DNA of 64,000 nucleotides from Deltaproteobacteria bacterium (lineage in GTDB: Bacteria; Desulfobacterota; GWC2-55-46): positions 50,215 through 114,214 of the forward strand of contig JABTVA010000008.1 of assembly GCA_015075075.1 (NCBI GenBank), given 5' to 3'. Below the pieces are notes generated by a model. The model searched no databases. It was given only the letters and a program-made list of their open reading frames with translations, and was not told the DNA's origin. Below are positions 3,098-56,833 of this stretch, in pieces. The position numbers and the translations under genes were made by a program. The stretch's first letter is position 1. Every line of letters begins with the position of its first letter.

Positions 3098-4609
3098 TTA
3101 TTCCCCGGAGACGGCCCCCCATGCCTCAAGGTCCTTGAGATACCGATAGGCCGCCGGGTCCCCGAGCTCGTGCGCCTTTTTCATGCTGAGATATGAGTTC
3201 CTCCCGTCGCCGAGGTGCATGTAGGCCTTGCCGAGGTCTATGTGCATCGAGGAATCGGAAGGGTCGAGATCCGCTGCCTTCCGGAAGTCTTCGAGGGCGT
3301 CCCCGTACCGGCCCGCGATGGCATGGGCCGTGCCGCGCCCCTTGAACCCCTGTGCGTTGTCCGGGTATAACGCTATCTGGCGGCCCCATAACGTGAGAGA
3401 GTCCTTCCAGACCGCCTGTTGCCTGAATGTCATGGCGGAGAAGATGGCCGAAACCATGAAGACGGCCAGCAGCACTGGGAAGAAGGCCTTCGCGCGCCTC
3501 CGGACCGCCCAACCTGCGCCTGCGGAGGCAAGCATCGCGAAGCCTATGCCGGGGATGTACATGAACCTGTCGGCGGCGGCGTGCATCCCGACCTGCAATA
3601 TGCCGATTATCGGAAGGAGAGTCATAAGGAAGTAGGCCCATACGGAAACACAGACCCTGCTCCACCTGCAAAGATAGACGGCGAGCGCGGTAATCGCCGA
3701 AAGCGCAAGGACGTAAACCGCGAAGAGCGTATCGAGGCCCGCGGGGAAATCGCGGGGATAGAGCGGGGCGAGGTTGACCGGGATAAGCGTTTTATAGATA
3801 TAAAAAAGATAGCCCCTGGCGGTGATGTGCAGGCGGCCCTCAAGCGGGAGCGCTTCCGCGGATATTATGACGCTGTCCACAGTATGAGACCAGACGTTCA
3901 GAAGCCCCGTTGCCATGCTCAACGCGAAGAAGGGGGCCTTCTCCAGCACGAGCCTCTTCCAACCGTCAGTCCTGGACCTCTCAAGGGGGTAGAAGTCGAG
4001 TATGAGTAGCACAAGAGGCATGGTGACGGTCATGGGTTTACTGAGAAGCGACAGGACGAAAAAGACGAGCGTAAGCGCGTAGGATAATGCCTTCCGGCCC
4101 CGTGCATAGCTCAGATAGGCGTGCAGGCCCAGGAGGAAGAAAAAGGCGTTAAGGACGTCCTTCCTTTCGCTCACCCATGCGACCGATTCGACCTTGAGCG
4201 GGTGGAGCCCGAAGAGGAGGCCCGCTGAAAGGGCGATTATGAAGAGCGCCTTCGGCCTGAGGCCGCCCCTTGCTGACGCGAGCCTCGTTGCCAGCAGGGC
4301 CACGAGGAAGGCGTTCGCGCCGTGGAGTATCGCATTTGAAAGGTGGTAGCCGAAAGGGTCGAGGCCCCAGAACGCGTAATCGAGCGAGAAGGAGAGGAGC
4401 GTAACCGGGATCCAGGCGCCGTTCGCGAACGAGGTGAAGACGGCCTCGAGGTTCAGGCCCCGGATAGCCGTGTTGTTATGGACGTACATGAGGTCGTCCC
4501 AGTTGACGAAATCGAACGAGAGGGAGGGAAGGTAGATGACGAAAGAGGCCAGGGCCGATATGAGTGCGGCAACGAGGACTATCTTCGGTTGTCTTCTGTT
4601 TTCATTCAT
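3098..4609 (-). CDS. GT-C-fold (PMT_2/TMTC-like, DUF1736-type) membrane protein with C-terminal TPR repeats, paralog 1
   Basis: 503 aa. Multi-TM N-domain with an 'FDFVNWDD' loop motif (DD/DE motif of PMT/TMTC-type glycosyltransferases). C-terminal soluble TPR repeats ('...GRYGDALEDFRKAADLDP...'). First of four tandem paralogs. Confidence 0.7.
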   Translation of the reverse strand: MNENRRQPKIVLVAALISALASFVIYLPSLSFDFVNWDDLMYVHNNTAIRGLNLEAVFTSFANGAWIPVTLLSFSLDYAFWGLDPFGYHLSNAILHGANAFLVALLATRLASARGGLRPKALFIIALSAGLLFGLHPLKVESVAWVSERKDVLNAFFFLLGLHAYLSYARGRKALSYALTLVFFVLSLLSKPMTVTMPLVLLILDFYPLERSRTDGWKRLVLEKAPFFALSMATGLLNVWSHTVDSVIISAEALPLEGRLHITARGYLFYIYKTLIPVNLAPLYPRDFPAGLDTLFAVYVLALSAITALAVYLCRWSRVCVSVWAYFLMTLLPIIGILQVGMHAAADRFMYIPGIGFAMLASAGAGWAVRRRAKAFFPVLLAVFMVSAIFSAMTFRQQAVWKDSLTLWGRQIALYPDNAQGFKGRGTAHAIAGRYGDALEDFRKAADLDPSDSSMHIDLGKAYMHLGDGRNSYLSMKKAHELGDPAAYRYLKDLEAWGAVSGE

Positions 4610-4635
4610 TTCCGGTCCTGATCATCGGGGCCAGC

Positions 4636-6441
4636 TCATTTACCCGGGCCCTGCGCTTCGAGGTCCTTCAGATACCTTGAAGCCGCCGGGTCCCCGAGGT
4701 CATGGGCCCGCTTCATGCTGAGGTACGAGTTTTCGCTGTCGCCCAGGTGCATGTAGGCCTTTCCGAGGTCTATGTGCGCCGAAGGGTCCGCGGGGTCGAG
4801 CAGGACGGCGTTCTTGAAGTCCTCGACCGCCTTCCCGTACTGGCCTGAGATGGCATGTGCAACGCCGCGGGCCCTGTAAGCGTCCTTGTTCCGGGGGTCC
4901 CCGTCCAGGACGAACGTGAGGTCCGCGATCCCCTCCTCGAACCTGCCGGCGTTTACAAGGGCGCCCCCGCGTTTCATATAGGCGTCGGTCGATACCGGGC
5001 CGAGCTCTATCGCCCGGTCCAGGTTTTCGATGGCAAGGTCGAATTTACCGAGGCTTATATACGCGTTGGCGCGGTTCATGAACCCGCTCGCCGTGTCCGG
5101 GGTGATCCTGCCAAGGTCCTCCATGGCGAGGTCGAGCCTCCCCTGGACGAGATAGGCGTTCCCCCGGTTTACATACCCGTATGGATGGTCCGGGAAGAGC
5201 CTTATCTGCTGGTTCCAGAGTGAGAAAGAGTCCTTCCATACGGATATCTGCTTGAGCGCAAGAATTGAGAGCAATGCCGAGGCCGCGATAATTACAGCCA
5301 GGACCGGCGCGAACGCGCCCTTTTTCCTTTCCGCCAGCCTCCCGGCCCCTGCCGCGACGAGCACGGCGATCCCCATGCCAGGGATATATGTGTACCTGTC
5401 AGCCGCGGCCTGCATCCCCACCTGCACGAGCCCTATTACCGGGATTAGCGTTATCACGAAGTAGGCCCAGACCGCGATGAAGGCCCAGCTCCGCCTCCGA
5501 AGTAAAATCGCGAGCGCGGTCAGGGCCGAAAGCGCGAGCACATAGAGGGCGAAAAGGCCAGGTCCCATAGCGAAGTCGCGGGGGTATACAGGCGCAAGAT
5601 TGACCGGCACGAGGGTCTTGTAGATATAGAAGAGATAGCCCCGGGCCGCGATATGGAGACGGCTCCCGAAGGCAAGCTCTTCTGCCGGGACCATTGCCAT
5701 GGTCTGGGACCACATGGTAGCGAGCACGGCTGCCAGGCTCAATATGATAAAAGGGAGCTTCTCTATTATTAGCCTTTTCCAGCCGTCTTTTCTATGCCTC
5801 CCGAGCGGATACAGGTCGAGTATCAATAAAACCAGCGGCATGGTTACGGTCATGGGCTTGCTGAGGAGCGATAAAACAAAAAAGACGAGCGTCAAAACAT
5901 ATGAGGAAGCCTTTTTGGTTTTGGCGTAGCCGAGATAGGAAAGGACACCCAGGAGGAAAAAGAAGGCGTTAAGGACGTCCTTCCTTTCGCTTATCCAGGC
6001 AACCGACTCTACCCTGAGGGGATGGAGCCCGAATAGGAGCCCGGCTGAAATGGCTATTATGAAGAGCGCCTTTGCATTCGAGCCCCTTGTCCCCGCGAGC
6101 CTTGCCGCGAGCAGGGCCACAAGGAAAACGTTAGCCGCGTGGAGCGCCGAGTTCGTCAGGTGATAGCCCAATGGGTTAAGCCCCCAGAGGGCGTAATCGA
6201 GAGAGAGGGATAGGAACGTTACAGGGACCCACGTCCCGAGGATGACGGATGTAAAGGCCCACTTGAGGCCGGGCCCCTGCAATCGGGGGTTCTCATAGAC
6301 GTAGAGCTGGTCGTCCCAGTTTACGAAATCGAAGCCGAGGGAAGGGAGATAGAGCGCGAATGCGGCTATGGCCGATAAGAGGGCCGCGATGAGGATTATG
6401 TTTTCTGGTTTGCGGTTATCCGGCATACCGGAACGGTCCAT
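4636..6441 (-). CDS. GT-C-fold (PMT_2/TMTC-like) membrane protein with C-terminal TPR repeats, paralog 2
   Basis: 601 aa. Same architecture as paralog 1 ('FDFVNWDD' loop, about 11 TM helices, longer TPR domain). Confidence 0.7.
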   Translation of the reverse strand: MDRSGMPDNRKPENIILIAALLSAIAAFALYLPSLGFDFVNWDDQLYVYENPRLQGPGLKWAFTSVILGTWVPVTFLSLSLDYALWGLNPLGYHLTNSALHAANVFLVALLAARLAGTRGSNAKALFIIAISAGLLFGLHPLRVESVAWISERKDVLNAFFFLLGVLSYLGYAKTKKASSYVLTLVFFVLSLLSKPMTVTMPLVLLILDLYPLGRHRKDGWKRLIIEKLPFIILSLAAVLATMWSQTMAMVPAEELAFGSRLHIAARGYLFYIYKTLVPVNLAPVYPRDFAMGPGLFALYVLALSALTALAILLRRRSWAFIAVWAYFVITLIPVIGLVQVGMQAAADRYTYIPGMGIAVLVAAGAGRLAERKKGAFAPVLAVIIAASALLSILALKQISVWKDSFSLWNQQIRLFPDHPYGYVNRGNAYLVQGRLDLAMEDLGRITPDTASGFMNRANAYISLGKFDLAIENLDRAIELGPVSTDAYMKRGGALVNAGRFEEGIADLTFVLDGDPRNKDAYRARGVAHAISGQYGKAVEDFKNAVLLDPADPSAHIDLGKAYMHLGDSENSYLSMKRAHDLGDPAASRYLKDLEAQGPGK

Positions 6442-6671
6442 ATGAAGATTGTTGAAGGTTTTCAGGAGTTTACCACCGGGGCCCGCCGGTTTGCAAGCCG
6501 ATATTACCTTTGTCCGGCGCCCCTGGCCTCAAGGTCCGAAATGTATCTGGAGGCAGAAGTGTCGCCGAGCTCAAGCGCCTTTCTCATGCTGGCGTATGAT
6601 CTCTCGAAATTGCCGAGGTGCATATATACCTTGCCGAGGTCAATGTGCGCGGACGGGTCCGAGGGGTCGAG
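6371..6671. repeat. Near-identical ~300-bp segmental duplication, copy A (gene 3 end / intergenic / gene 2 start)
   Basis: Direct sequence comparison. Positions 6380-6612 match 8170-8402 exactly, with scattered mismatches beyond. Confidence 0.9.
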
Positions 6672-8228
6672 CGCAATCGCCTTCTGGAAGTCTTTAAGCG
6701 CATCGACGTAACGGCCTGCAAGGGCGTATGCCGTGCCGCGCGCCTTGTATACGGCCTTGCTTTCAGGGTCCGAATCCACTAACACGGTGAGGTCGGCGAT
6801 CCCTTTATCGAGCCTGCCCGCATTTACGAGGGCTACTCCGCGATTGAAATATATCTCGTTTATGAACGAAGGATGGAGGCTTACGCTCTTGTCCAGGTCT
6901 TTGATGGCATCTTCGTACATTCCCTTGGCAAGGTACACGGCGCCGCGGTTTACGTACCCGTATGCATAATCCGGGAAGAGCCTGACCTGATGGCTCCAGA
7001 GGGACAGTGAGTCCTTCCATACTCCAGCCTGCCCGAGCGTAGTGAAAGAGAGAAGGGCCGAGGCCGCTACCACTGAAGCCAGGACCGGCGCGAACGCGCT
7101 CCGGTTCTTTCCCGCGGCCCACCCTGCCCCTGCCGCAGCCAGTACCGCGAGGCCCATCCCCGGAATATAGGTGTATCTGTCGGCCGCGGCCTGCATCCCG
7201 ACCTGCAAAAACCCTATTACCGGGAGGAGCGTTACCGCAAAATAGGCCCAAACGGCTATGAAAACCCCGCTCCGCCTCCTGAGATAGACGGCGAGCGCCG
7301 TAATCGCAAGGAGCGCGAGGGCATAGGCCGCAAAGTGAAGGTTAAGGCCGGTTTGGAAATTCCGCGGGTAAAGTGGGGCGAGGTCCATGGGCGCAAGGGT
7401 CTTGTAGATATAAAAGAGGTAGCCTCTTTCCGCGACATGGAGCCGTCCGCTAAAGACGAGCTCCTGGACCGTGACCATTGCCTTGCTCTGCGACCAGACG
7501 GTGATAAGCCCGGTCGCGAGGCTCAGCATGAAGAAAGGGAGCTTCTCGATAACGGGCCTCGTCCAGCCTTCTTTCCTGAACCTGTCGAATGGGTAGAAGT
7601 CGAGTATCAGGAGCACGAGCGGCATGGTGACGGTCATGGGCTTACTGAGAAGCGAGAGGACGAAAAAGACAAGCGCCAATATATACGACGAGGCTTTTTT
7701 GTGCTTGGCGTAGCCGAGATAGGAAAGGATACCCAGGAGGAAAAAGAACGCGTTCAGGACGTCCTTTCTTTCACTTATCCAGACCACGGACTCTACCCTT
7801 AGCGGATGGAGCCCGAAGAGGAGCCCGGCTGAAAGGGCGATTAAAAATAGCCCCCGTGCCCCGAAGCCGCCTCTTGTCCCCGCGAGCCTCGCGCCGAGCA
7901 AGGCGACAAGAAAGACGTTTGCCGCATGGAGTGCCGAGTTCGTGAGGTGGTATCCCAGCGGGTTCAGTCCCCATATGGCGTAATCGAGCGTGAAGGAGAG
8001 GAAAGTTACTGGCACCCATGTCCCGACCACGACCGAGGTAAAGGCCTGTTTGAGATCCAGGCCCCGGATATCCGGGTTCCCGGTCACGTAGGAAGGGTCG
8101 TCCAGGTCCACGAACTCGAAACCGAGGGAAGGCAGATAGACCGCGAACGAAGCCACGGCCGATAGGAGGGCCGCGATGAGGATTATGTTTTCTGGTTTGC
8201 GGTTATCCGGCATACCGGAACGGTCCAT
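6504..8228 (-). CDS. GT-C-fold (PMT_2/TMTC-like) membrane protein with C-terminal TPR repeats, paralog 3
   Basis: 574 aa. N-terminus identical to paralog 2 ('MDRSGMPDNRKPENIILIAALLSA'). C-terminus identical to paralog 4 ('...SYASMRKALELGDTSASRYISDLEARGAGQR'). Confidence 0.7.
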   Translation of the reverse strand: MDRSGMPDNRKPENIILIAALLSAVASFAVYLPSLGFEFVDLDDPSYVTGNPDIRGLDLKQAFTSVVVGTWVPVTFLSFTLDYAIWGLNPLGYHLTNSALHAANVFLVALLGARLAGTRGGFGARGLFLIALSAGLLFGLHPLRVESVVWISERKDVLNAFFFLLGILSYLGYAKHKKASSYILALVFFVLSLLSKPMTVTMPLVLLILDFYPFDRFRKEGWTRPVIEKLPFFMLSLATGLITVWSQSKAMVTVQELVFSGRLHVAERGYLFYIYKTLAPMDLAPLYPRNFQTGLNLHFAAYALALLAITALAVYLRRRSGVFIAVWAYFAVTLLPVIGFLQVGMQAAADRYTYIPGMGLAVLAAAGAGWAAGKNRSAFAPVLASVVAASALLSFTTLGQAGVWKDSLSLWSHQVRLFPDYAYGYVNRGAVYLAKGMYEDAIKDLDKSVSLHPSFINEIYFNRGVALVNAGRLDKGIADLTVLVDSDPESKAVYKARGTAYALAGRYVDALKDFQKAIALDPSDPSAHIDLGKVYMHLGNFERSYASMRKALELGDTSASRYISDLEARGAGQR

Positions 8229-8461
8229 ATGAAGATTGTTGAAGGTTTTCAGGAGTTTACCACCGGGGCCCGCCGGTTTGCAAGCCGATATTACCTTTGT
8301 CCGGCGCCCCTGGCCTCAAGGTCCGAAATGTATCTGGAGGCAGAAGTGTCGCCGAGCTCAAGCGCCTTTCTCATGCTGGCGTATGATCTTTCGAAATTGC
8401 CGAGGTGCATATATACCTTGCCGAGGTCTATGTGCGCCGAAGGGTCTCCGGGGTCGAGCTC
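8161..8461. repeat. Near-identical ~300-bp segmental duplication, copy B (gene 4 end / intergenic / gene 3 start)
   Basis: See copy A. Includes the identical 62-bp intergenic spacer. Confidence 0.9.
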
Positions 8462-10090
8462 CGCTGCCTTCAGGAAGTCTTCGAGCGCCTCCCCGTATTG
8501 GCCGGAAATGGCGTATGCGGTGCCGCGCGCCCTGAATATGGCCTTGTTCCCCGGGTCTGAATCGAGGACTACAGTAAAATCCGAGATACCTTCCCTGAAC
8601 CTGCCGGCGTTTACGAGGGCGCTCCCGCGGCTTGAGTACGCAGGCAATGTGTTCGGCTCCAGCTCTATGGCCTTATCGAGGTCCGGGATGGCCAGGTCGA
8701 ACCTGCCGAGGGTCAAATAGGCGTTCCCGCGGTTAAAGTACCCGTGGCCGCTTTCAGGAGACATCTTACGGAGGTCCTCTATCGCGGATTCGTTCATGCC
8801 AAGCGCAACATAAGCGGCGCTCCGGTTCACATACCCCTGGCTGTGGGACGGGAAGACCTCTATCTGCCGGCTCCAGAGGGAGACCGGATTTTTCCAGATC
8901 ATTTCCTGCTTGAAGGCGAAAAAGGAGAGTAGCCCCGATGCCGCCAAAACCAGCGCCAAAACGGCCGGGAGACTTTTGCTATTCCTTTTCACAATCCAGC
9001 CTGCCGCGGCGGAAACGAGAATCGCCAGTCCGATGGCCGGAATATATGTATACCTGTCGGCAGCCGCCTGCCTTCCTACCTGCATGAGGCCTATGACAGG
9101 GAGCAGCGTGACCGCGTAGCAGGCCCATGCGGAAATAAAGGCCTTGCTCCATCTACGAAGGTAAAGGGCGAGAATGGTTATGGCTGCAAGCGCCGCGAGG
9201 TAAAGGACCGCCGAAAGGTTAAGGCCTGAGGCGAAGTCGCGGGGGTAGAGGGGCGCAAGGCCGGCCGGGATGACCGACTTGTAAATATAGAATAGATACC
9301 CCCTCGCCGCGATATGGATCCGGTCGGCGAACGGGAGCGCCTCCGGCGGCATCACGGCCTTTCCCTGCGACCAGATGGTCATTAGCCCGGCTGCCAGGCT
9401 CAGCATTAAAAATGGGAGTTTTTCAATTAGCGGCCTCTTCCACCCTTCCCTCTTGAGCCTTTCAAGAGGATAGTAGTCTAATATGAGAAGCACGAGCGGC
9501 ATGGTGACCGTCATGGGCTTACTTAGAAGTGAAAGGACGAAAAGGACGAGCGTCAATACATAGGAGGATGCCTTTTTGTTTTCAGCATACCCGAGATAGG
9601 CGTGGAGGCCGAGGAGAAAGAAGAAGGCGTTCAGGACGTCCTTTCTTTCGCTGACCCATGCCACTGACTCGGCCCTTAGAGGGTGTAGTCCGAAAAGGAG
9701 CCCGGCCGAGAGGGCCATGAGGAATAGCCCGCCTGCCCCGAGACCGCCCCTTCTGCCGGCGAGCCTCGCGGCCAGGAAGGCCACGAGAAAGACGTTGGCG
9801 GAGTGGAGTATCGTGTTCGTGAGGTGGTACCCCAGCGGGTCCAGCCCCCATACGGCGTAATCGAGGGCGAATGACAGGAACGTGAGCGGTATCCAGGTGC
9901 CTACCACGACAGCCGTGAAGGCCCATTTGAGGTCAATGCCCTGGATATCAGGGTTCTCGGATACGTACGCGGGGTCGTCCCAGTCAACGAAATCGAAGCC
10001 CAGGGAAGGGAGATAGAGCGCGAATGCGGCTATAGCGGATATGAGGGCCGCGAGGAAAATAAGTTTAAAAGAATAATCTCTTTCCGGCAT
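8291..10090 (-). CDS. GT-C-fold (PMT_2/TMTC-like) membrane protein with C-terminal TPR repeats, paralog 4
   Basis: 599 aa, same architecture ('FDFVDWDD'). Confidence 0.7.
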   Translation of the reverse strand: MPERDYSFKLIFLAALISAIAAFALYLPSLGFDFVDWDDPAYVSENPDIQGIDLKWAFTAVVVGTWIPLTFLSFALDYAVWGLDPLGYHLTNTILHSANVFLVAFLAARLAGRRGGLGAGGLFLMALSAGLLFGLHPLRAESVAWVSERKDVLNAFFFLLGLHAYLGYAENKKASSYVLTLVLFVLSLLSKPMTVTMPLVLLILDYYPLERLKREGWKRPLIEKLPFLMLSLAAGLMTIWSQGKAVMPPEALPFADRIHIAARGYLFYIYKSVIPAGLAPLYPRDFASGLNLSAVLYLAALAAITILALYLRRWSKAFISAWACYAVTLLPVIGLMQVGRQAAADRYTYIPAIGLAILVSAAAGWIVKRNSKSLPAVLALVLAASGLLSFFAFKQEMIWKNPVSLWSRQIEVFPSHSQGYVNRSAAYVALGMNESAIEDLRKMSPESGHGYFNRGNAYLTLGRFDLAIPDLDKAIELEPNTLPAYSSRGSALVNAGRFREGISDFTVVLDSDPGNKAIFRARGTAYAISGQYGEALEDFLKAAELDPGDPSAHIDLGKVYMHLGNFERSYASMRKALELGDTSASRYISDLEARGAGQR

Positions 10091-10344
10091 TCCTTTTCCC
10101 AGGCTCTTTGCAATAAAGAGCGGCCCTTTCCGGCTGGACTGCTTGCGCGTTAACCGCTTGCAAGCTTTAAGGAAATTGACTCGAGTTCGTCCGTTTAGTC
10201 AGCCAGTATACCATTGCGGGGTTTTGGTTTGCAAGGGTGCCGCGGCCCGGGATTTTTTTGTGCTATTAGGGCGTTTCGCATGATATATTATGACGATTAA
10301 GGACCGAGGAGAGACTCCGCCCCGGCTGGGGCGCGCATTCGCCT

Positions 10345-11058
10345 ATGACCGTTCTGAGGACCCTTGCCGTATGGCTCCTGGGCCTGCCCATAACCATAGC
10401 CCTTTTCATCCTCGTCCTCTTTTCCCTTCCGTTCGAAAGGCAGGGCAGGGCCGTCCATTCGATAGGGGCCTTCTGGTCGAGGGTGGTGCTCGCGCTATCG
10501 GGCGTAAGGGTGGACGTGCAAGGAAGGGAGAACGTCCCTTCGGGCAGGCCTGTTATCTTCGTCTCCAACCACCAGGGCGCCTTTGATATACCCGCGCTCC
10601 AGGCCTTTTTGCCCGTGCAGTTCCGCTGGGTGGCCAAAAAGAGCCTTTTCAGGATACCGGTCATAGGCTGGAGCATGAGCCTTGCCGGGTATGTAGGCAT
10701 CGACAGGGACAACCCGGCGGAGGCCATGAAGAACATGGAAGAGGCCTCGGAAAAGATAAAAAGGGGTACTTCGGTATTGATATTCCCCGAGGGCACGAGG
10801 TCCGGTTCTGTCCGGCTCCTCCCCTTTAAGCGAGGGGCCTTCGTCCTCGCAAAAAAAAGCGGCGTCCCTGTCGTGCCTGTCGCAATAGACGGCACTTCGG
10901 ATATAATGAGGCGTGGGGGCATCCTCATAAGGCCATCGCGTGTCAGGATACGGATAGGCAGGCTCGTGGAAACCGGGCCTCTTGACGAGAAGGAGCTACG
11001 GAACAGGATGAAGAAGGACATAGAAGGACTGTTGCAGGCCGGGGCAGGGAGGCCCTGA
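10345..11058 (+). CDS. plsC: 1-acyl-sn-glycerol-3-phosphate acyltransferase
   Basis: 237 aa. Has the 'NHQGAFD' (HX4D) and 'FPEGTR' acyltransferase motifs and an N-terminal TM anchor. Confidence 0.85.
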   Translation: MTVLRTLAVWLLGLPITIALFILVLFSLPFERQGRAVHSIGAFWSRVVLALSGVRVDVQGRENVPSGRPVIFVSNHQGAFDIPALQAFLPVQFRWVAKKSLFRIPVIGWSMSLAGYVGIDRDNPAEAMKNMEEASEKIKRGTSVLIFPEGTRSGSVRLLPFKRGAFVLAKKSGVPVVPVAIDGTSDIMRRGGILIRPSRVRIRIGRLVETGPLDEKELRNRMKKDIEGLLQAGAGRP

Positions 11059-12913: not shown

Positions 12914-14017
12914 ATGAGCTCGAAAGTCTACTTCGCGGACCTGAGGACCACCCCCAAAAGAAACCTACATAACAAGCTCGACTCCCTCCTTGAGAACGTA
13001 GGCATAAGGGAGAGGTTCAGGAAAGGGCACCTTGTCGCCCTTAAGCTCCATTTCGGGGAAAAGGGCAACGCCTCCTACGTGAGGCCCGTTTTCGTAAGGC
13101 GGATCGTCGAGCGCGTAAGGGAGACAGGCGGAAACCCCTTTCTTACCGACACAAACACCCTTTACGTAGGCACCAGGGGCAACACGGTAGACCACCTGAG
13201 GACCGCCGTCGAGAACGGCTTCGATTTCGCCGTGGTCTCAGCCCCCCTCGTCATAGCCGACGGCTTAAGGGGAGCCTCCGGGACGCCGATAAGGGTAGGG
13301 GGGAAGCACCTCAGGGAAGTAAGCATAGCGAGCGAGATAGTCGCCGCCGACGGGCTCGTGGCGGTGACCCATTTCAAATGCCACGAGCTTTCCGGCTTCG
13401 GGGGCGCGTTGAAGAACGTCGGCATGGGGTGCGCAAGCCGCGAGGGGAAGCTCGCGCAGCACTCGAACTGCTCCCCGATCGTAGACCCCGGAGGCTGCGT
13501 TGCCTGCGGCGACTGCGCCGCCGCGTGCCCCTCGGGGGCCATAACGGTCGGGACCGCCGCAGTCATAGACAAGGAGGCCTGCATAGGATGCGGCCACTGC
13601 ATCGCCGTTTGCCCGGAGGGTACGATAAAGGTAAGCTGGGACGAGTCGTCCGGGAGGCTCCAGGAGAAGATGGTCGAGCACTTCGAGGGGGCCGTCAAGG
13701 GGAAGTCTGGCAGGTGCGTATATATCTCATTCGTGACCCAGGTGAGCCCGGCCTGCGACTGCTACGGCCATAACGACGCCCCCATAGTGCCGGACGCCGG
13801 GGTGCTGGCCTCGATTGACCCGGTGGCCATAGACCAGGCCGCTGCGGACATCGTAAACGGGATGGAAGGGTTCAGGGGGAGCGCCTTAAGGAGCGGGCAC
13901 GGGCCGGGTGGCGACAAGTTCAGGGGGGTCCACCCTTCCGTAGACTGGGAAGTGCAGCTGTCATACGCCGAGGAGAGGGGCCTCGGGTCGAGGGATTACT
14001 CCCTTGTTAAAATCTGA
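12914..14017 (+). CDS. DUF362 domain protein with 2x[4Fe-4S] ferredoxin domain
   Basis: DUF362-like N-region followed by 'CVACGDCAAACP' and 'CIGCGHCIAVCP' cluster motifs. Start was moved to the ATG at 12914, downstream of the MITE-derived extension. Confidence 0.7.
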   Translation: MSSKVYFADLRTTPKRNLHNKLDSLLENVGIRERFRKGHLVALKLHFGEKGNASYVRPVFVRRIVERVRETGGNPFLTDTNTLYVGTRGNTVDHLRTAVENGFDFAVVSAPLVIADGLRGASGTPIRVGGKHLREVSIASEIVAADGLVAVTHFKCHELSGFGGALKNVGMGCASREGKLAQHSNCSPIVDPGGCVACGDCAAACPSGAITVGTAAVIDKEACIGCGHCIAVCPEGTIKVSWDESSGRLQEKMVEHFEGAVKGKSGRCVYISFVTQVSPACDCYGHNDAPIVPDAGVLASIDPVAIDQAAADIVNGMEGFRGSALRSGHGPGGDKFRGVHPSVDWEVQLSYAEERGLGSRDYSLVKI

Positions 14018-14053: not shown

Positions 14054-15921
14054 ATGGCGGTAAAGAAGATAGGCGAGCTCCTGGTCGAATCAGGGCTCAT
14101 AATGAGGACCAGCTCGAAGAGGCCCTTGCCGCGGGCAAGGAGAACAAGGGCACCAGGACAGGCGCCCTGCTCGTAAAGCTCGGGTACGCAACGGAGATTG
14201 ACATAGCCCAGACCCTCTCCTACCAGGTCGGCATCCCCTTCGTGGATATGGCTTCCACGACCGTGGACCCGGAGAGCATCAAGCTGGTCAACGAAAAGCT
14301 CGCCAGGAAGTACCTCCTTGTGCCGCTCTACCATGACAAGAAGGTCCTGAGGGTCGCCATGTCGGACCCGCTGAACCTGAACGCCATAGACGACCTGAGG
14401 TTTTCGACGGGCTTGGAGATACAGCCCTTCATCTCCACGCTCTCGGACATCAACGCCGCGATATCGAGGCACTATCACCTGAACGAGCCCATGATGGACG
14501 AGATACTGGGCGATTTCAAGAAGGACAGGTACGTCGAGGTATTCCACGAGTCCGAATCGAGCAGGGACCTTTCCGAGCAGGTAAAGAAGTCCGCCGCCCC
14601 GCCCATCATAAAGATGGTCGATTCCATCCTGATACACGGCTTCGACAACAGGGCGAGCGACATCCACATCGAGCCGCAGGAAAAGGGCGTGAAGCTCAGG
14701 ATACGGGTGGACGGGCTCATGCGCGAAACCAAGCAGCTCCCCAAATGGGTGCAGGGGCCTGTCGTTTCGAGGATAAAGATAATGGCCCGGATGGACATAG
14801 CCGAGAGGAGGACGGCCCAGGACGGCAGGTTCAAGGTGCGGATAGGGGAAAAGAGCATGGACGTGAGGGTCTCGTCGCTCCCGACCCAGCACGGCGAGAC
14901 GATAGTCATGCGGCTCCTCGACCCCAAGGCCGCCATGATAGACATAGAGGGCATAGGGATAGGAAAGGGTGAGCTCGACCGGGTGCTTGATATCATAGAG
15001 CGCCCCCAGGGGGTCGTGCTCGTCACCGGCCCCACTGGCTCGGGAAAGACCTCGACCCTTTACGCCATGCTCGCCCGCATAAAAAAGGAAGAGATAAACA
15101 TAATCACGATAGAGGACCCGATAGAGTACGAGCTCAAGGACGTAAACCAGGTGGCCGTGAACGACAAGACCGGCCTGACCTTCTCGTACACCCTGAGGTC
15201 GGTACTACGGCAGGACCCGGACGTCATACTCGTCGGCGAGATGAGGGACGCGGAGACGGCCACGATCGCCCACCAGGCCTCCCTTACGGGGCACCTTGTC
15301 TTCTCGACCCTGCACACAAACGACGCGGTATCATCGGTAACGAGGCTCCGTAACCTCGGCGTGCCTTCGTACATGATAGCGTCGGCCCTGAACGGCATAG
15401 TGGCCCAGAGGCTCGTGAGGATGATATGCAAGGGGTGCAGGGAGGAGTACACGCCGACCGGGCAGGAGATACGGAAGGCTGGGCTCAAGTGGTCCGGGAA
15501 GAAGCTCTACAGGGGCGCGGGATGCAGCCTCTGCGCCAATACCGGCTACTCGGGGAGGACCGGGATATTCGAGATAATATCGGTAAACGGCGCGATAAAG
15601 AACCTCATAGCCGCCGACGCCCCCGAGCACGAGATAATCGCCGCCGCCCTGGAAGGCGGCATGACCCCCATGCACATGGACGGGCTCGATAAGGTCTCTT
15701 CCGGCATAACCACGCTCGAAGAGCTCGCTCGGGTCATATACATGGCCAAGGAACCGGTATGCCCGGTTTGCCTTAAGACCGTACCGGCCGGTACGGAGAG
15801 ATGCGGCGAATGCGAAGCTGCCAAGGCCGCCGTCTGTCAATGGTGCGGGAAGGGACGGGAGGAGGGCTGGGTAGCGTGCCCCTGGTGCGCGCACGAGTTC
15901 GCCGCCGCCCCGCTATCATGA
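14054..15921 (+). CDS. MshE/GspE/PilB-family secretion ATPase with N-terminal c-di-GMP-binding MshEN-type domain and extra C-terminal double zinc ribbon; apparent -1 frameshift near 14100
   Basis: Walker A 'VLVTGPTGSGKTSTL' and the canonical tetracysteine 'CKGCREEY...CSLCANTGY'. Upstream, in another frame, 'MAVKKIGELLVESGLI|TEDQLEEAL...LVKLGYATEIDIAQTLSYQ' matches the MshEN motifs. The intact ORF starts at 14242. The C-terminus adds 'CPVCLK...CGECEA...CQWC...CPWCAHEF'. Confidence 0.75.
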
Positions 15922-16055: not shown

Positions 16056-16213
16056 TCAACACCCTGATAAAGTCCTGATGAGGCCTGCTCCTTTTCGGGG
16101 CTTTCCCTTTTTCCTGCTATCCTGATTTCCATGAGCCAGGCTTTTTTTGGTTTGCGGAAAAGTTCCACTTGTGATATATTCCGGCAATCCACTATGTGAG
16201 CGAGTTCAGGCGG

Positions 16214-16276: not shown

Positions 16277-16846
16277 ATGCTGAAATCCTCGCTGACCATA
16301 GCGCTCTTTGCCTTGGCTTGCATGCCGGGCTCCGCAATCGGGGAATTCTTTTCAATGGACCCGGCCCCTGCGGACAGGCCGTTCCTGGAACAAAAGAGGA
16401 AGCCGGGCGATATTAAGAAGGACAAGTACGGCCTCCCGGACCCCACTCCAGACGTAATCTCCCTTACGCACCTTCCAAAGGACCGATACGGCTTCGTAGA
16501 CTGGGCCGAGGCCATCTCCACGGGCGTAATCTCGCCGAAATCGTCGATCGACGGCTTGCCCGCAAGGCTCTCTCCCGTTGACAGGGAGAGGTTCGACGGG
16601 GACGTCCTCATAAGGTCCGGGAAGGAATTCATGCCGGACGTGCTCTTCCCGCATTCGGCCCACAACGAGTGGCTCAAGTGCTCCACCTGCCACCCCCGCA
16701 TATTCTCGAAGAAGGCCGGCGCGAGCCGCATTACGATGACGGGGATATGGAAGGGCAGGTTCTGCGGCGTATGCCATGACAAGGTGGCCTTTCCGACGAG
16801 GAACTGCTTCAAATGCCATTCGGTTCGGAAGGACGCGGGGAAATAG
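16277..16846 (+). CDS. Periplasmic triheme c-type cytochrome
   Basis: Signal peptide 'MLKSSLTIALFALACMPGSA'. Three CxxCH motifs (CSTCH, CGVCH, CFKCH). Confidence 0.75.
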   Translation: MLKSSLTIALFALACMPGSAIGEFFSMDPAPADRPFLEQKRKPGDIKKDKYGLPDPTPDVISLTHLPKDRYGFVDWAEAISTGVISPKSSIDGLPARLSPVDRERFDGDVLIRSGKEFMPDVLFPHSAHNEWLKCSTCHPRIFSKKAGASRITMTGIWKGRFCGVCHDKVAFPTRNCFKCHSVRKDAGK

Positions 16847-16869
16847 CATGTATTGTCCAGAGGAACAAC

Positions 16870-17469
16870 ATGCCTTTTGAAGACTTTTCAAAAAAGGAAC
16901 TTATAAGCATCCTGGAGATCATCGAGTCCGCCCAGAAATGCACGGGGGCGGACCAGATAAAGGACCTCATATTGAAGGCGAGGGGCGTCGTAGAGGCCGA
17001 TTACGCCGTCTGCGGACTATTGGGAAAGGAAAAATCAGGGGCGCCATGCATCAGCTCCTATATAAACGGAAATTATTCGGACGAATGGGTCAATAGATAC
17101 ATGAATGAGGGGTATGCCGCCAACGATCCGATAGTCAGGCACATGTCCAAGTATTCACTGAGCCGGTTATGGACCGAAATATTCAAGGAGCACAGGGACC
17201 CCGCCTCAACGAGGCTCCTTAAGGACGCTGAAGACTTCGACCTTAAGTTCGGGGTAACCGGCGGGGTGTTCGTGCCCGAGCTTGACCAGGTGGCCATCTT
17301 CACGTTCGCAGGGGGGAAAGACCGCTTCAGGGCCCACCATAAGAGGATAATGGACATACTCGTCCTCCATCTGCAGAGCGCGCTTGTAACTTCGATTGCG
17401 ACCGACGCAGCACTGGAAAAACTGCCGGACAAGGGGATGCCCAACTGGAGGTGCAAATATGGATTATAG
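16870..17469 (+). CDS. LuxR-type autoinducer-binding domain protein lacking the HTH domain (TrlR-like)
   Basis: Autoind_bind signature 'YSDEWVNRYMNEGYAANDPIVRH'. The protein ends at 199 aa with no LuxR-type HTH in any frame. Its stop overlaps the start of the downstream paralog. Confidence 0.65.
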   Translation: MPFEDFSKKELISILEIIESAQKCTGADQIKDLILKARGVVEADYAVCGLLGKEKSGAPCISSYINGNYSDEWVNRYMNEGYAANDPIVRHMSKYSLSRLWTEIFKEHRDPASTRLLKDAEDFDLKFGVTGGVFVPELDQVAIFTFAGGKDRFRAHHKRIMDILVLHLQSALVTSIATDAALEKLPDKGMPNWRCKYGL

Positions 17470-18200
17470 GAAATTCTCGAAAAAGGAGCTTGGAGATATC
17501 CTCGACCTCATCTAGATGTCCGTTGCGTGCCGGGCAGACGAGGACATCCTGAGATTGACAGGGAAAATAAAGGACCTCGTTTGCGCGGACCAGGGTGTAT
17601 GCGGGCTGGGCGGCATCGTTTCAGGCGAGCTCTCGAATATCATCAAGATAGTGAACTATGACTACTCTACCGAGTGGCTTTCCATGTATGCCGCCGAAAA
17701 ACTGTACAAGAACGATCCGATAATCAGGTACAATTACGAGCGCTTCGAGACGCATTTCTGGTCTGAGGCGATCGAGGCTTTCAATGACGAGTCCAGCAGG
17801 GATTTCATGAGGAAGGCTTCTGATTTCGGACTTGTCCACGGCGTGGCAAGCGGCATGCGCGACGGCGGCTCGAAGGGTTCGATATTTTCGTTCTCAAGCT
17901 CCAAGAACCGTTTCAGTAAACACCACAAGGACGTCCTGGACATACTCACCCCGCACGTCCACATGGCGCTGGCGAGGGTCGGAGGCGTCAGGAGCGAAAA
18001 GAGCGGTCCTCAGATCTCGGAAAGGGAAAAAGAGGTCTTGAACTGGATGAAGGAAGGCAAGACCAACTGGGAGATTTCGGTCATTGAACATCAGCGAAAG
18101 GACGGTCAAGTTCCACGTCCAGAATATAGAAAGAAAGCTCAATGCCGTAAATAAGGCTCGTACGATTGCGATAGCGATGGATATCGGGCTGGTAATGTAA
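17459..18200 (+). pseudogene. LuxR-family regulator (autoinducer-binding + LuxR HTH) interrupted by an in-frame TAG (17513-17515) and a -1 frameshift near 18095
   Basis: Paralog of the upstream gene (MDYRKFSKKELGDILDLI*MSVACRADED... vs MPFEDFSKKELISILEIIESAQKCTGADQ...). It has 'YSTEWLSMYAAEKLYKNDPIIRY'. In the -1 frame, 'NISERTVKFHVQNIERKLNAVNKARTIAIAMDIGLVM*' is the LuxR-type HTH. Confidence 0.55.
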
Positions 18201-18239
18201 GATCCATGCAAGGAGCTCGGTCTTCTGTCCGCGCATAGT

Positions 18240-18789
18240 TCCTCGAAAGACCCCAGTCAAGCTCTATCGCGCCCGCGACTACGCCGTCCGGCATCGTGAC
18301 GAAATCCGCCAGCTGCGTTACCGGGAAGCCGCAGAGCCCTCAAAAGCCTGTAGTATCGCTTGTCCACTACCATGACCATGCGCCTTACGCCTCTCAGGGC
18401 GCTCCAATTGTATATGGCCTTGTAAATCAAGCGGGAGATGAGCGACGCGTTCTTCTCCGCTCCTCTTTACGCAGAGCCGGGTGATTTCAGGCCATGTCCG
18501 TCTTTGCGGAACTCGCCCTCGCCGGCATCATGCAGGCGAACTCCTTTCCACCATGAACGGATAAGGATGCGTTATGAGCCTGGCATGTCCGAGAATGCTC
18601 ATGTCCATCCTGAACACGCCGATGCATTCCGCAAACCTGTCATACTCGTCGGTCTCCATCCCGTCCTGCGAGCACCGCACCCACTTGAGTTCCGGGCGAA
18701 GACCTCATGGCGGAGCTAAGCGCCGCCTCGAATTCCTCAGAGCGGAGATGGTCTTTATTGAACCCGCTATCCTCGAATATCAGTTCCAT
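18240..18789 (-). pseudogene. LuxI-family acyl-homoserine-lactone synthase, multiply frameshifted (not in ORF track)
   Basis: Minus-strand translation across three frames gives MELIFEDSGFNKDHLRSEEFEAA | LRHEVFAR | ELKWV..ETDEYDRFAECIGVF...HARLITHPYPF | TWPEITRLCV | LIYKAIYNWSALRGVRRMVMVVDKRYYRLLRAL | PVTQLADFVTMPDGVVAGAIELD. This is colinear with the LuxI blocks LRYQVFKQRLEWDL..ESDEYD, WELSRFA, LFEAIYKHAV..VTVTSTAIERFLKRI. The 3' boundary is uncertain. Confidence 0.55.
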
Positions 18790-19008
18790 GTCCCTTTTAG
18801 CAGGAAGGGGCGGGGTCACGTAACTGGCAGGCATATCAGTTCACTTTATGCGGCGTAGTTGTAAAATAAAAAATTTAATTCCGGGGACCTGGCCAAAGTG
18901 CAGTGGGACCGGGCGGGTAAATGATGTATAATGCTGCCGTTCCGATTTGAGAGAGGGCAGGGCAAAACCCGGTACTTAAGGCGTGCAGGCATCCTGAAAG
19001 GAGTTTGT

Positions 19009-19719
19009 ATGGACGCTGACTACAGGAGGTGCCGTGAGACCGCTTTCAAGGCGCTCATTGGTCCTCATACGGACTCGCGGAGTTCGGCAGGAACGTCTTC
19101 TGGAGCTAATGGTATCGTACGCAGCGCCCAGGAAAGACGCCCGGACGTCTCCGACAGGCTCCTCAGGAGGTTCAGGGGTTTAAAGGCGCCTCGACGCATC
19201 CCGGAAGAGCTTAAGGCCGAGGGCTCGCTGGGCGACGACGGCATAGTGCTCGTCAAGCTATTCAAGGAGATGGCGGGCGCCTATCTTAAGGAGCGGACGG
19301 TCGGGCAGGATGCCGAGGCCGGCATGGCGGACCTCCTCGACTACCTTTGCCTTACGCTATCCGGCGAGAGGGTCGAGAAGTTCTTAGCGGTATACATGGG
19401 GTTCAGGAAAGAGATAATCTCCATAGACGTTCTGCACGAGGGCACCATAAACCAGACCGTCGTGTATCCGAGGAAGGCCATTGAGATGGCCTTCAGGCAT
19501 AACGCCAGGTCGGTCATCTTCGTCCACAACCACCCGAGCGGCGACCCCACGCCGTCGAGCCAGGACAGGCAGCTTACAAGGGTCCTGGACAGGGCCGCTT
19601 CCGCGGTCGACATACTGGTCCTTGACCACCTGATAATCGGCAGGGACAGGCACTTCAGCGCCAGGGAGAACGGCTGGTCGATGGGGCTTCCCTTCAACTG
19701 CATCGCCGCAAGCCCCTGA
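19009..19719 (+). CDS. radC: RadC-family JAB/MPN domain protein
   Basis: C-terminal 'HNHPSGDPTPSSQD' JAMM motif. RBS AAAGGAG precedes the ATG at 19009. Confidence 0.8.
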   Translation: MDADYRRCRETAFKALIGPHTDSRSSAGTSSGANGIVRSAQERRPDVSDRLLRRFRGLKAPRRIPEELKAEGSLGDDGIVLVKLFKEMAGAYLKERTVGQDAEAGMADLLDYLCLTLSGERVEKFLAVYMGFRKEIISIDVLHEGTINQTVVYPRKAIEMAFRHNARSVIFVHNHPSGDPTPSSQDRQLTRVLDRAASAVDILVLDHLIIGRDRHFSARENGWSMGLPFNCIAASP

Positions 19720-19737
19720 TGTCGACTTAAAAGGCCT

Positions 19738-19880
19738 TTGTTGTCATTGCGGAGCTTTGGCTCGAAGCAATCTCAAATGCCCGATATTCCAAAAAATGAG
19801 AGTGCTTCCCGCCACGCTTCGCTCGCGGCTTCGGCTCACACGCTCGCAATGACGAATATGCGAATCAGTCAGAGCTTCCT
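19738..19880. mobile_element. MITE-like element, family B (degenerate copy)
   Basis: Shares the core 'TTGTCATTGC...GATTGCTTCCCGCCACGCTTCGCTCGCGGCTTCGGCTCACACGCTCGCAATGACGAA' with the copy at 22226. The right TIR is degenerate ('GAATCAGTCAGAGCTTCC'). Confidence 0.65.
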
Positions 19881-35621: not shown

Positions 35622-36425
35622 ATGAGAAGGAATAAGAGGTCCAGGCCAAAGGCGGAGCCCCCGGCAGTCAGCCGGAACATATCGATAGTGCTGGTAGAGC
35701 CGCAGAGCTCAGGCAACGTCGGAAGCACTGCCCGGGCCATGAGAAACACGGGTTTTTCCGACCTGGTGCTCATAAACCCGTGCGAATACAAAAATAACGA
35801 GTCCTATTCAATGGCCTGCAAGGCCGACGGCGTGCTTGAGACGGCCCGGGTCTTCCCTGACCTTGAAAGCTACATCCCCGAGCCGCGCGTCCTCGTCGGG
35901 ACGACCCGGAGGATAGGCAGGCACAGGTACCCGGTCCTGACCCTTTCCGAGGCGGTCCCGGAGATCCTCAGGCTTGCGGCTTCCAACAGGGTGGCCATAC
36001 TCTTCGGCAGGGAGGACAAGGGGCTCCTTAACGAGGAGATACCGCTTTGCGACATGCTCGTTGAGATACCCACATCCGACGATTACCCCTCCATAAACCT
36101 CTCGCACGCGGTCTTTACGGTCTGCCACCACCTCTACACCGCCGCCGCGCCCAAGGCGCCTGCCATAAAGGTAGCGCCGAGAGGCGAACTCGAGCGGATG
36201 TACGAGCACATGGAGAGGACGCTCCGGGGAATAGGCTACGGCGACAAGGGCGGGGAATATCTCCTCGAAGCAATGATGCGGAGCTTCAGGCGCCTCTTCG
36301 GCAGGACAGGCCTCATGGAAAAGGAGGTCAACATGCTCCGGGGAGTATTCACGCAGATAGAGGCCCGGACGATAAACCCTGAAGAGGACGGGGGAAACAG
36401 GCATGCAGGAGCAGGAGCTCAATAG
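35622..36425 (+). CDS. SpoU/TrmH-family RNA 2'-O-methyltransferase (TrmJ-like)
   Basis: SPOUT motifs 'VLVEPQSSGNVGSTARAM', 'ILFGREDKGL' and 'SINLSHAVFTVCHHL'. Confidence 0.75.
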   Translation: MRRNKRSRPKAEPPAVSRNISIVLVEPQSSGNVGSTARAMRNTGFSDLVLINPCEYKNNESYSMACKADGVLETARVFPDLESYIPEPRVLVGTTRRIGRHRYPVLTLSEAVPEILRLAASNRVAILFGREDKGLLNEEIPLCDMLVEIPTSDDYPSINLSHAVFTVCHHLYTAAAPKAPAIKVAPRGELERMYEHMERTLRGIGYGDKGGEYLLEAMMRSFRRLFGRTGLMEKEVNMLRGVFTQIEARTINPEEDGGNRHAGAGAQ

Positions 36426-37320
36426 AAAAATGCTCGAAAGCGCTTCCGCGGCCCTGAAGGACGCGAGGGCCGAAGCGCTCCTCCTTTTTGTCGACGCGGC
36501 GGAGGACAAGACCTTCTGGCGGAGGTCCAGGGCCAGGAAAAAGTTCATCCTCGTCACGCAGGACGCCGAGACCGCCTCGGCCCTTGAATGCTTCAGAAAA
36601 GAGGTCAAGGCCATCCTCAAGCTCCCTGTCGTAAGGCTCACCAGGGTAGGCCAGGTAAAGCTCTCCCTCATCATGGGCGTGACCGAAGGGCTTATAAAAA
36701 GCTCGGACAAGGTCGTATGCGTGGCGGGCCTCCCTGTCCACGGCGTCCTCGATACCCTCATGATAATAGACCTCGAGCGCGAGGCCGAGGTCTTCAGCGC
36801 CATGGGCATCTCAATGGACCTTCTGAAAAAGGTCAAGCCAGAGGTGCTCGAAGCGGTCTTGAACATCGCGCTCGAGCTATCGAGCGAGGGCCGCGAAGGG
36901 AGGACCGTCGGCACGACCTTCGTCATAGGCGACAACGACAAGGTCATGGAGCTATCGCGTCCGCTCATAATGAACCCCTTCAAGGGCTATCCCGAGGAGG
37001 CCCGGAACATACTCGACGAGGCGGTCCACGAGACCATAAAGGAATACTCCCTCCTTGACGGCGCGTTCGTCATAAGGGAGGACGGGGTCGTCATGGCCGC
37101 CGGCATCCACCTGGACGCTGCCCTCAAGGAAGAGGGGCTCATGCCTGGGCTCGGCTGCAGGCACATGGCAGCCGCGGGCATAACCGACGTGACCGGGGCC
37201 GCGGCCATAACCATCTCCGGCTCAACGGGCATAGTCCGAATATTCAGGAAAGGCAAGGTCCTCCTCGAGCTTGAAAAGCCGCTCGCCAAGCCCGTAAACA
37301 AATCCGTATCCGCGCCTTGA
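36403..37320 (+). CDS. Diadenylate cyclase (DAC/DisA_N) domain protein with N-terminal uncharacterised domain
   Basis: C-terminal 'DGAFVIREDGVV..AAG' and 'LGCRHMAAAGITDVTGAAAITISGSTGIVRIF'. These correspond to the DGA and (T)RHRAA motifs of c-di-AMP synthases. Confidence 0.6.
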   Translation: MQEQELNRKMLESASAALKDARAEALLLFVDAAEDKTFWRRSRARKKFILVTQDAETASALECFRKEVKAILKLPVVRLTRVGQVKLSLIMGVTEGLIKSSDKVVCVAGLPVHGVLDTLMIIDLEREAEVFSAMGISMDLLKKVKPEVLEAVLNIALELSSEGREGRTVGTTFVIGDNDKVMELSRPLIMNPFKGYPEEARNILDEAVHETIKEYSLLDGAFVIREDGVVMAAGIHLDAALKEEGLMPGLGCRHMAAAGITDVTGAAAITISGSTGIVRIFRKGKVLLELEKPLAKPVNKSVSAP

Positions 37321-56497: not shown

Positions 56498-56781
56498 GCA
56501 ACCTCTAACAGGCTGCTGAAAAAGTCGTTCTCCGTCGAAGGCTACGTCGCTCGTCACTGCGGCGTACAAGAAAAGTACGCCTCATTCCTCGCTCCTCGAC
56601 GCCTCGCATCTGGAGCTTTTTGAGCAGCCTGAACAAAAACGGAGTTTTTCAGCAAGCTGCCAAGAAAGGATCTTTTCCCCGGACTCTGCTTCGGGCCGGG
56701 AATAAAATGCTATATGCTCCGTTTTTTATTCCCGGCCTTCCGGGAAAAGCGGGAAAAATCTCTGATTTTTTAGAGGTTGCC
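56498..56781. mobile_element. MITE family D with a nested family C MITE (56511-56658)
   Basis: D left TIR 'GGCAACCTCTAACA' at 56498. Directly followed by C 'GGCTGCTGAAAAAG...GAGTTTTTCAGCAAGCTG'. The D body then runs to the right TIR 'TTTTTAGAGGTTGCC' at 56781. Confidence 0.7.
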
Positions 56782-56833
56782 GCCTTATGATATAATTGAA
56801 TGCAGGCCCACAATTCCAGCCCAGGGGGGTGCC

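Follow-up and report, generated by a model that had tools for sequence, protein, structure and literature searches.

Sequence comparison places a stand-alone, MshEN-containing motor ATPase in a branch of the PilB/GspE family with a predicted double zinc-ribbon tail

Introduction

What might a motor ATPase of the pilus and secretion type be doing in a stretch of genome that holds no other pilus or secretion gene? The question is raised by a gene in a 64,000-nucleotide stretch of DNA (hereafter 'the window') from Deltaproteobacteria bacterium (GenBank assembly GCA_015075075.1, contig JABTVA010000008.1, positions 50,215 to 114,214 of the forward strand). The gene occupies positions 14054..15921 on the plus strand, comprises 622 codons once a single missing base is restored, and encodes an ATPase of the T2SSE family preceded by an MshEN module. 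A preliminary description, made from the letters of the window alone, had presented the product as an orphan, MshE-like secretion ATPase with a domain for binding cyclic di-GMP (c-di-GMP), a frame change close to its start and an additional metal-binding module at its end.

Type IV pili (T4P) and type II secretion systems (T2SS) are driven by ATPases of the PilB, GspE and MshE kinds, and MshEN is among the highest-affinity c-di-GMP receptors known. Judged by its sequence, the window gene belongs, as an ordinary and conserved member, to a branch of PilB/GspE-type ATPases that is common but undescribed, whose proteins carry a zinc-ribbon tail and are usually encoded on their own.

The zinc-ribbon tail and the branch that carries it

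The protein extends for ~55 residues beyond the tetracysteine motif of its ATPase core. The extension contains eight cysteines arranged as four CxxC pairs and is predicted to form a C-terminal double zinc ribbon (15760..15888, plus strand; C570-C612, CPVC-x10-CGEC-x7-CQWC-x10-CPWC). The four further CxxC pairs of the preliminary description are therefore all present, at spacings of x10/x7/x10 and not the x8/x8/x13 given there.

Searched against a database, the protein matched more than 100 clusters of relatives (57–95% identity, ~620–640 amino acids) from Thermodesulfobacteriota and 'Deltaproteobacteria' metagenome-assembled genomes (MAGs), most of them with a precomputed match to the double-zinc-ribbon family DZR. 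All four CxxC pairs are kept at near-fixed spacing in 93 of 111 homologues, and the pattern is thus not a product of chance; a few peripheral homologues retain one ribbon or none. A 94% identical homologue (P0002) and P0087–P0100 end within or just past the first ribbon, with two to three CxxC pairs left, and a small sister group (P0101, P0106, P0110 and P0117) has no tail at all. Either, at the margin of the clade, the tail is labile in evolution, or errors have cut short some of these gene calls too.

The same tail recurs at ~50% identity in Deferrimicrobiaceae and in Acidobacteriota/Vicinamibacteria, as seen in a scan of GTDB species representatives (which returned neither the window's own species nor its 95% identical relative). 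An HMMER search of 1.84 billion cluster representatives (50% clusters) yielded the best 150 relatives, at ~37–51% identity, and a module of four CxxC pairs lies C-terminal to the ATPase in 49 of these 150 nearest cluster representatives. A neighbour-joining tree built on the ATPase core gathers the 55 tail-bearing sequences, without exception, in one clade of 78 leaves, and none of the 58 sequences outside that clade has the tail. On these alignments, the tail marks a whole multi-phylum subfamily.

The additional metal-binding module had at first been considered unusual. That impression has not survived, since the module has a match, in this copy below the gathering score, to Pfam family PF12773 (DZR) and is found in those 49 of the 150 nearest representatives; the possibility that it might be a common annotated domain of PilB/GspE-type proteins is partly borne out, although no paper on the architecture was found. 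The published table of MshEN architectures (Wang et al. 2016) has no entry for a zinc-ribbon form, and a full-text search of the literature found no description of an MshEN/PilB-type ATPase with a zinc ribbon and, among the papers listed, nothing relevant on orphan PilB-like ATPases or on forms with a receiver domain. All named members of the subfamily that were looked up come from uncultured MAGs and are automatically annotated as PilB, TadA or GspE, and it is probably because these members all come from uncultured lineages that the subfamily is undescribed.

The ATPase core and its place in the family

The domains follow one another in the order MshEN_N, MshEN_C (N1E-like), N2, catalytic C-terminal domain (CTD) and double zinc ribbon. 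The repaired protein matches PF00437, the T2SSE ATPase core, over residues 182–560 (14596..15732, plus strand; E 3e-129, 431 bits against a gathering cut-off of 24.9) and PF05157, the MshEN_C/T2SSE_N1-like domain, over residues 60–143 (14230..14481, plus strand; E 2e-22). N1-type domains dock GspE and PilB to their machines. Within the core, the Walker A sequence GPTGSGKT (15028–15051, plus strand), EDPIEY, DPDVILVGEMRD and TGHLVFSTLHT are invariant or nearly so across 111 homologues, and the residues of Walker A and B and of the Asp and His boxes show no variation in that alignment, so that ATP hydrolysis is evidently under selection. The four cysteines of the tetracysteine zinc motif (15427..15534, plus strand; C459-x2-C462 ... 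C491-x2-C494) are invariant as well; this CTD motif is a trait of PilB/GspE-type ATPases and is absent from PilT. The GspE/PilB core of the preliminary description is in this way confirmed, both by the domain matches and by the conservation of the catalytic motifs.

The closest solved structures are those of PilF and PilB, which align over the full length (E 1e-146 to 1e-133); GspE scores E 1e-115. The top NCBIfam match is TIGR02538 (PilB), with 590 bits and under its equivalog cut-off of 675.65, and TIGR02533 (GspE) scores 575.7 bits, under its cut-off of 630.25. Scores so nearly equal, and below both cut-offs, make the protein an orthologue of neither by those criteria. The label 'MshE-like' is apt in that an MshEN domain is present (as it is in many PilBs), but the PilB and GspE scores are equal and there is no msh operon. 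An AlphaFold2 model of a 95%-identical homologue (P0001), computed from a 111-sequence alignment, is confident for the body of the protein (mean predicted local distance difference test (pLDDT) score 80), with the linker between N1 and N2 poorly defined.

The putative c-di-GMP-binding module

MshEN has been defined as two tandem motifs of the form RLGxx(L/V/I)(L/V/I)xxG(L/V/I)(L/V/I)xxxxLxxxLxxQ, 24 residues each, joined by a 5-residue linker (Wang et al. 2016, PMC5013675). The predicted MshEN_N module of the window protein (14066..14226, plus strand; residues 5–58) passes NCBIfam NF053729 ('c-di-GMP_motif, MshE-related') with 47 bits against a cut-off of 38. Its motif 1 is KIGELLVESGLI(I)EDQLEEALAAG and its motif 2 is RTGALLVKLGYATEIDIAQTLSYQ, each 24 residues long, with a 6-residue spacer between them. 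The protein matches 20 of 22 key motif positions under a crude scoring scheme of our own; c-di-GMP binding by this putative receptor module is likely, although both motifs depart from the published pattern in the ways given below.

An interrupted gene in the window, an intact gene in its relatives

In the window, the gene is divided between two reading frames. A first piece of open reading frame (ORF) at 14054–14176 lies in frame 2 and starts with MAVKKIGELLVESGLI; a GGAG Shine-Dalgarno sequence 6 nt 5' of the ATG at 14054 marks this position as the true start. From 14101 onward, frame 1 reads (N)EDQLEEAL...LVKLGYATEIDIAQTLSYQ, also given as (N)EDQLEEALAAGKENKGTRTGALLVKLGYATEIDIAQTLSYQVGIPFVD..., and ends at the TGA stop codon at 15919–15921. 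Since the earliest start codon in frame 1 is the GTG at 14242, nothing but a −1 frame change connects the two pieces. The 1-bp change that had been placed near 14100 is seen as a 1-nt deletion at 14104.

The site of the frameshift (14099..14106, plus strand) reads ATAAT-GAG in the window, with one A missing at 14104, and ATAATAGAG (Ile-Ile-Glu) in two separate same-species NCBI MAGs, GCA_048500075.1 (L005) and GCA_023384475.1 (L006); the 95%-identical relative has ATAACCGAG. Both MAGs are 99.76% identical to window positions 1067–22696, contain the window's RNase J protein unchanged and carry an uninterrupted ATPase gene of 622 amino acids, and restoration of the A makes the window protein 100% identical to their versions. 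Set beside L005 over 21.6 kb, the window has 10 substitutions but 34 indels, the latter nearly all single-base deletions in the window, and the LuxR, LuxI and Lon-like genes of the window are also frame-broken. A pattern in which indels predominate and the ATPase gene is otherwise unchanged resembles consensus errors and not gene decay. The frameshift is therefore very probably an artefact of assembly, most probably an indel error, and the gene intact in the organism; the frame change should not be read as biology.

Two other accounts of the frame change have to be considered. The deletion stands in the window sequence as given and lies outside the long homopolymers into which most of the other indels fall, which would fit a real and very recent pseudogene whose deletion is present in the cells. 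We regard this as improbable, because comparison with the two same-species MAGs reveals no other protein-altering nucleotide change, the differences from them are mostly the single-base deletions already described, at least three further genes (LuxR, LuxI and Lon-like) are broken, and the ATPase family is under strong purifying selection. The second account has the frame change decoded in the cell, by transcriptional slippage or programmed −1 ribosomal frameshifting; in its favour, the two frames share one base and would fit together without a gap. To this we attach practically no credence: CTCATAATGAGG contains no slippery X XXY YYZ heptamer, an Rfam search of 10–20 kb returned no element, and the protein lies in one frame in every relative examined. 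Programmed frameshifting was ruled out on these grounds.

Two other parts of the window show similar damage. Positions 18083–19800 hold a dense run of ~30 indels relative to L005, nearly all of them single-base deletions and many in homopolymers, which break the gene for a LuxR-type regulator (frame change near 18084) and that for a LuxI-type N-acyl-homoserine lactone (AHL) synthase (minus strand, ~18200–18760) and reach the 5' part of RadC; this region looks like a locally poor consensus of the window's assembly. A Lon-like protease gene (56777–58540) is split between an ORF at 56777–58354, which contains the AAA_32 and LonC_helical domains, and an overlapping ORF in another frame at 58024–58539, which contains the LonB AAA-lid domain. 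The frame change there falls near 58260–58354, and another frameshift error is the probable cause.

Genomic setting

None of pilT, pilC, pilMNOPQ, gspF, gspD and gspG was found within the 64-kb window, Pfam scans of its remaining large ORFs revealed no T2SS or T4P gene, and the pilin, secretin and platform genes of an msh operon context are missing from the window and from the flanks of its relatives. When loci were probed with a PilC/GspF protein from a canonical locus, a PilC/GspF-like ORF was detected in none of 33 tail-bearing loci (18 of which extend at least 5 kb to both sides), compared with a platform gene in 39 of 53 tail-less PilB/GspE loci from the same scan. The stand-alone state thus belongs to the subfamily and not to this genome alone. 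The detachment from pilus and secretion genes noted earlier holds for the window and, as regards the platform gene, for all 33 tail-bearing loci.

The adjacent genes are those named at the outset. Upstream, a DUF362 protein with two 4Fe-4S ferredoxin motifs (12914..14017, plus strand) ends 37 nt before the start of the ATPase gene and is syntenic only within the lineage; downstream lies a cytochrome c7-type multihaem protein (16355..16846, plus strand), which follows the ATPase in 12 of 12 lineage loci and not in other lineages. In these 12 loci (64–95% ATPase identity) the order is PlsC-type acyltransferase, RNase J, (DUF362), ATPase, cytochrome c7, LuxR-like pair, LuxI, RadC and PAS kinase. 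A scan for promoters and terminators between 12.6 and 16.5 kb gave weak consensus matches only and one hairpin past the gene (16087–16101).

Could the ATPase work with these iron-sulfur and cytochrome neighbours, for example by exporting or assembling a cytochrome of the periplasm or the cell exterior? Relatives at 64–95% ATPase identity preserve the order DUF362, ATPase, cytochrome c7, the cytochrome is never missing from the lineage loci, and in one further locus (L009) the ATPase is adjoined by another cytochrome c gene, along with a radical SAM gene. We nevertheless consider the proposal very doubtful. The entire block from PlsC to PAS kinase is syntenic, so that shared ancestry explains the adjacency; two loci (L011 and L018) lack DUF362; and a 350-nt gap with a weak terminator-like hairpin precedes the cytochrome gene. 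The neighbours also differ in other lineages, with an HD-GYP gene directly 5' of the ATPase in L008 and L010, SecA, peptidase M23 and an ABC ATPase in Deferrimicrobiaceae, and hemerythrin, a DsrE-like protein and glycosyltransferases in L024. Block synteny and absence from other lineages rule out a functional link to DUF362 and cytochrome c7 as the main explanation. More generally, comparison of neighbours across the 33 loci yielded no family-wide partner apart from lineage-specific synteny: an HD-GYP gene adjoins the ATPase only in L008 and L010, and ORFs of the receiver (REC) type occur in only two of the 33.

Fusions in sister proteins

Of the 49 tail-bearing representatives, 26 have a receiver domain, placed after the ribbon in all but two, and one has GAF plus HD-GYP. 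Pfam confirmed the architecture MshEN-T2SSE-DZR-REC for eight proteins and, for a single one, MshEN-T2SSE-DZR-GAF-HD_5; this HD-GYP fusion mirrors the separate upstream HD-GYP gene of L008 and L010. A strong c-di-GMP motif and a receiver domain tend to exclude each other. Under our own scoring scheme, tail-bearing proteins without a receiver domain have a median motif score of 20/22 (17 of 23 score at least 19), and in those with one the motif is mostly degenerate (median 14/22; 17 of 26 score 15 or less). It looks as though one motor takes its regulatory input either from c-di-GMP or from the receiver domain.

The loci of three fused members were inspected. Two (P0157 and P0271) are stand-alone, and the third, on a Planctomycetota MAG (L094, 37–7366), lies beside filament genes: its MshEN-T2SSE-DZR-REC ATPase is flanked by a secretin gene together with a TPR protein and by a divergently oriented operon for prepilin-type proteins, three to four in number, whose signal peptides are of the G|FTLVE type. 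Within this locus of 18.7 kb, a PilC/GspF-like gene could not be detected.

Comparison with known systems

To our knowledge, GspE proteins generally have neither a functional MshEN_N motif nor a DZR tail. The window ATPase shares the ATPase core, the tetracysteine motif and an N1E-like domain with GspE/EpsE (PDB 4KSR, 1P9R), but falls below the 630.25 cut-off and has no gsp genes nearby. It resembles PilB proteins with an MshEN N-terminus (Myxococcus xanthus, PDB 3JC8; Geobacter metallireducens, PDB 5TSG/5TSH) in the order of MshEN_N, MshEN_C, N2 and CTD with tetracysteine motif, in a full-length alignment at E ~1e-134 and in an N-terminal c-di-GMP motif, which in the window protein is a putative one. 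Unlike PilB, it carries the predicted double zinc ribbon of ~55 residues, is not encoded beside pilT or pilC and belongs to a clade separate from the PilC-linked ATPases. The best-scoring solved structure is that of Thermus thermophilus PilF (PDB 6F8L, 5IT5; E 2e-146), whose MshEN domains bind c-di-GMP and which has the tetracysteine zinc site; PilF differs in that its N-terminus holds three MshEN repeats and its C-terminus lacks a ribbon. With Vibrio cholerae MshE (MshEN-c-di-GMP structure 5HTL; E 2e-16) the protein shares, in putative form, the tandem 24-residue motif, for which it scores above the NF053729 cut-off. It differs from MshE in its lack of an msh operon, a spacer of 6 and not 5 residues, Gln-to-Gly and Leu-to-Thr replacements and the DZR tail, and its c-di-GMP binding is a prediction.

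Other MshEN-T2SSE motors bear added sensory or regulatory modules, and the catalogue of Wang et al. (2016, PMC5013675) includes GAF-MshEN-T2SSE, REC-MshEN-T2SSE (Gmet_3473) and MshEN-T2SSE-cNMPbind (DP2226). The subfamily described here follows the same principle but differs in the module that is added, which is a C-terminal double zinc ribbon, followed in sister proteins by REC or GAF-HD-GYP.

A possible role, and the evidence against it

We favour, at a probability of roughly 0.55, the reading that the protein is a motor ATPase, gated by c-di-GMP, in the service of a type IV filament machine that is encoded at another locus. It would be a hexameric PilB/GspE-type motor of a distinct, widespread subfamily marked by its C-terminal double zinc ribbon. 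The N-terminal MshEN_N module, a four-helix unit, would bind c-di-GMP, and this binding would modulate either the activity or the docking of the fully conserved ATPase core. The core in turn would act in trans on a T4P- or T2SS-like type IV filament machine whose genes lie elsewhere in the genome. The tail would bind zinc and serve as a structural adaptor; in the stand-alone form it probably docks a partner protein, and in the sister proteins it would connect the motor to a receiver domain or to a GAF-HD-GYP c-di-GMP phosphodiesterase.

Several observations weigh against this reading. No partner machine was found in the 64 kb of this genome or in the flanks of up to 10 kb in its relatives, and filament genes adjoin a tail-bearing ATPase in only one of ~13 distinct genomic contexts. 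In the N-terminal module, the last Gln of motif 1 is replaced by Gly (followed by a conserved Lys or Arg), and position 2 of motif 2, where 89 of 91 members of the family have L/I/V, is Thr, a replacement peculiar to the window species and those nearest to it. The spacer measures 6 residues against the published 5, a length that is the norm of the family (72 of 91). Both motifs fail even a relaxed version of the regular expression of Wang et al.; on the other side stand the match to NF053729 and the 20 of 22 key positions. The tail of this particular copy matches PF12773 with E 6e-4 and 20.3 bits, below the gathering score of 27.3 (the tails of relatives reach 26–35 bits). In the AlphaFold2 model of P0001 the tail has pLDDT values of 57–67 and isolated beta bridges only, which establish neither a ribbon fold nor its packing; the model would fit ribbons that depend on metal and hang on a flexible tether, and it proves nothing. 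Finally, the tree is a crude neighbour-joining one built from BLOSUM distances, without support values, though its split is clean.

The same facts bear on the possibility that the subfamily no longer has any part in pilus and secretion machines and acts as a signalling ATPase, an ATP-driven switch that is regulated by c-di-GMP or (in the sister proteins) by phosphorylation and has its output through partners bound to the tail. The lack of a platform gene near any of the 33 tail-bearing loci would fit such a switch, as would the frequency of REC and GAF-HD-GYP fusions, the tendency of a strong c-di-GMP motif and a REC domain to exclude each other and the stand-alone state of P0157 and P0271, and there is a precedent in the signalling role in exopolysaccharide regulation ascribed to M. 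xanthus PilB (PMC5544727). Against it, conservation extends to the N1E-like domain for docking to the machine and to all catalytic motifs, one member (L094) lies beside a secretin and pseudopilins, and no conserved neighbour points to an alternative substrate or partner. The filament genes of L094 and the retained docking domain lead us to prefer a filament motor, and we think a filament-free switch unlikely. Less likely again is its most explicit form, in which the zinc-ribbon-tailed PilB-like ATPases would constitute a separate class that no longer drives pili or secretion, made up of gated, ATP-powered switches with the ribbon as output or docking module and with c-di-GMP (through MshEN_N) and phosphorylation (through REC) as alternative inputs.

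The object of interest is the subfamily with its receiver and HD-GYP fusions, and not the window locus itself: a large multi-phylum branch that bears a double zinc ribbon, is usually encoded away from a platform gene and has repeatedly acquired such fusions. If its members serve machines in trans, they would put filament assembly under a new level of control by second messengers; if no filament machine is served, they would represent a repurposed motor. The apparent either/or of an intact c-di-GMP motif and a receiver domain provides a concrete, testable hypothesis of regulation.

Other features of the window

Downstream of the cytochrome gene, positions 16813–18780 contain an AHL-type quorum-sensing locus that is also present in L001, L004, L005, L011 and L014–L020, within a Thermodesulfobacteriota-like MAG lineage. 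It consists of an Autoind_bind protein without a helix-turn-helix domain, a LuxR (Autoind_bind plus GerE) and a convergent LuxI. The quorum-sensing proteins of the window and L001 are ~35–48% identical, compared with 90–98% for the flanking genes, a contrast that points to a signalling cassette that has diversified rapidly or been replaced. In L011 (ENA contig, 9183–11049) the same genes appear as short calls (Autoind_bind, 166 amino acids; GerE, 142; Autoind_synth, 98), so that in another assembly, too, the region is either error-prone or decaying.

On the minus strand, positions 3098–10090 encode four tandem TPR paralogues of 503, 601, 574 and 599 amino acids, with ~57–65% mutual identity, where L001 has three copies. 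A 1-nt insertion at 6516 relative to L005 changes the C-terminal end of the third copy. Farther downstream, a gene at 36403–37320 encodes a DacZ-type diadenylate cyclase (DacZ_P sensor plus DAC domain), from which it would follow that the organism also makes cyclic di-adenosine monophosphate; it lies just upstream of a long cluster for cobalamin biosynthesis and cobalt transport (~37.9–49.4 kb).

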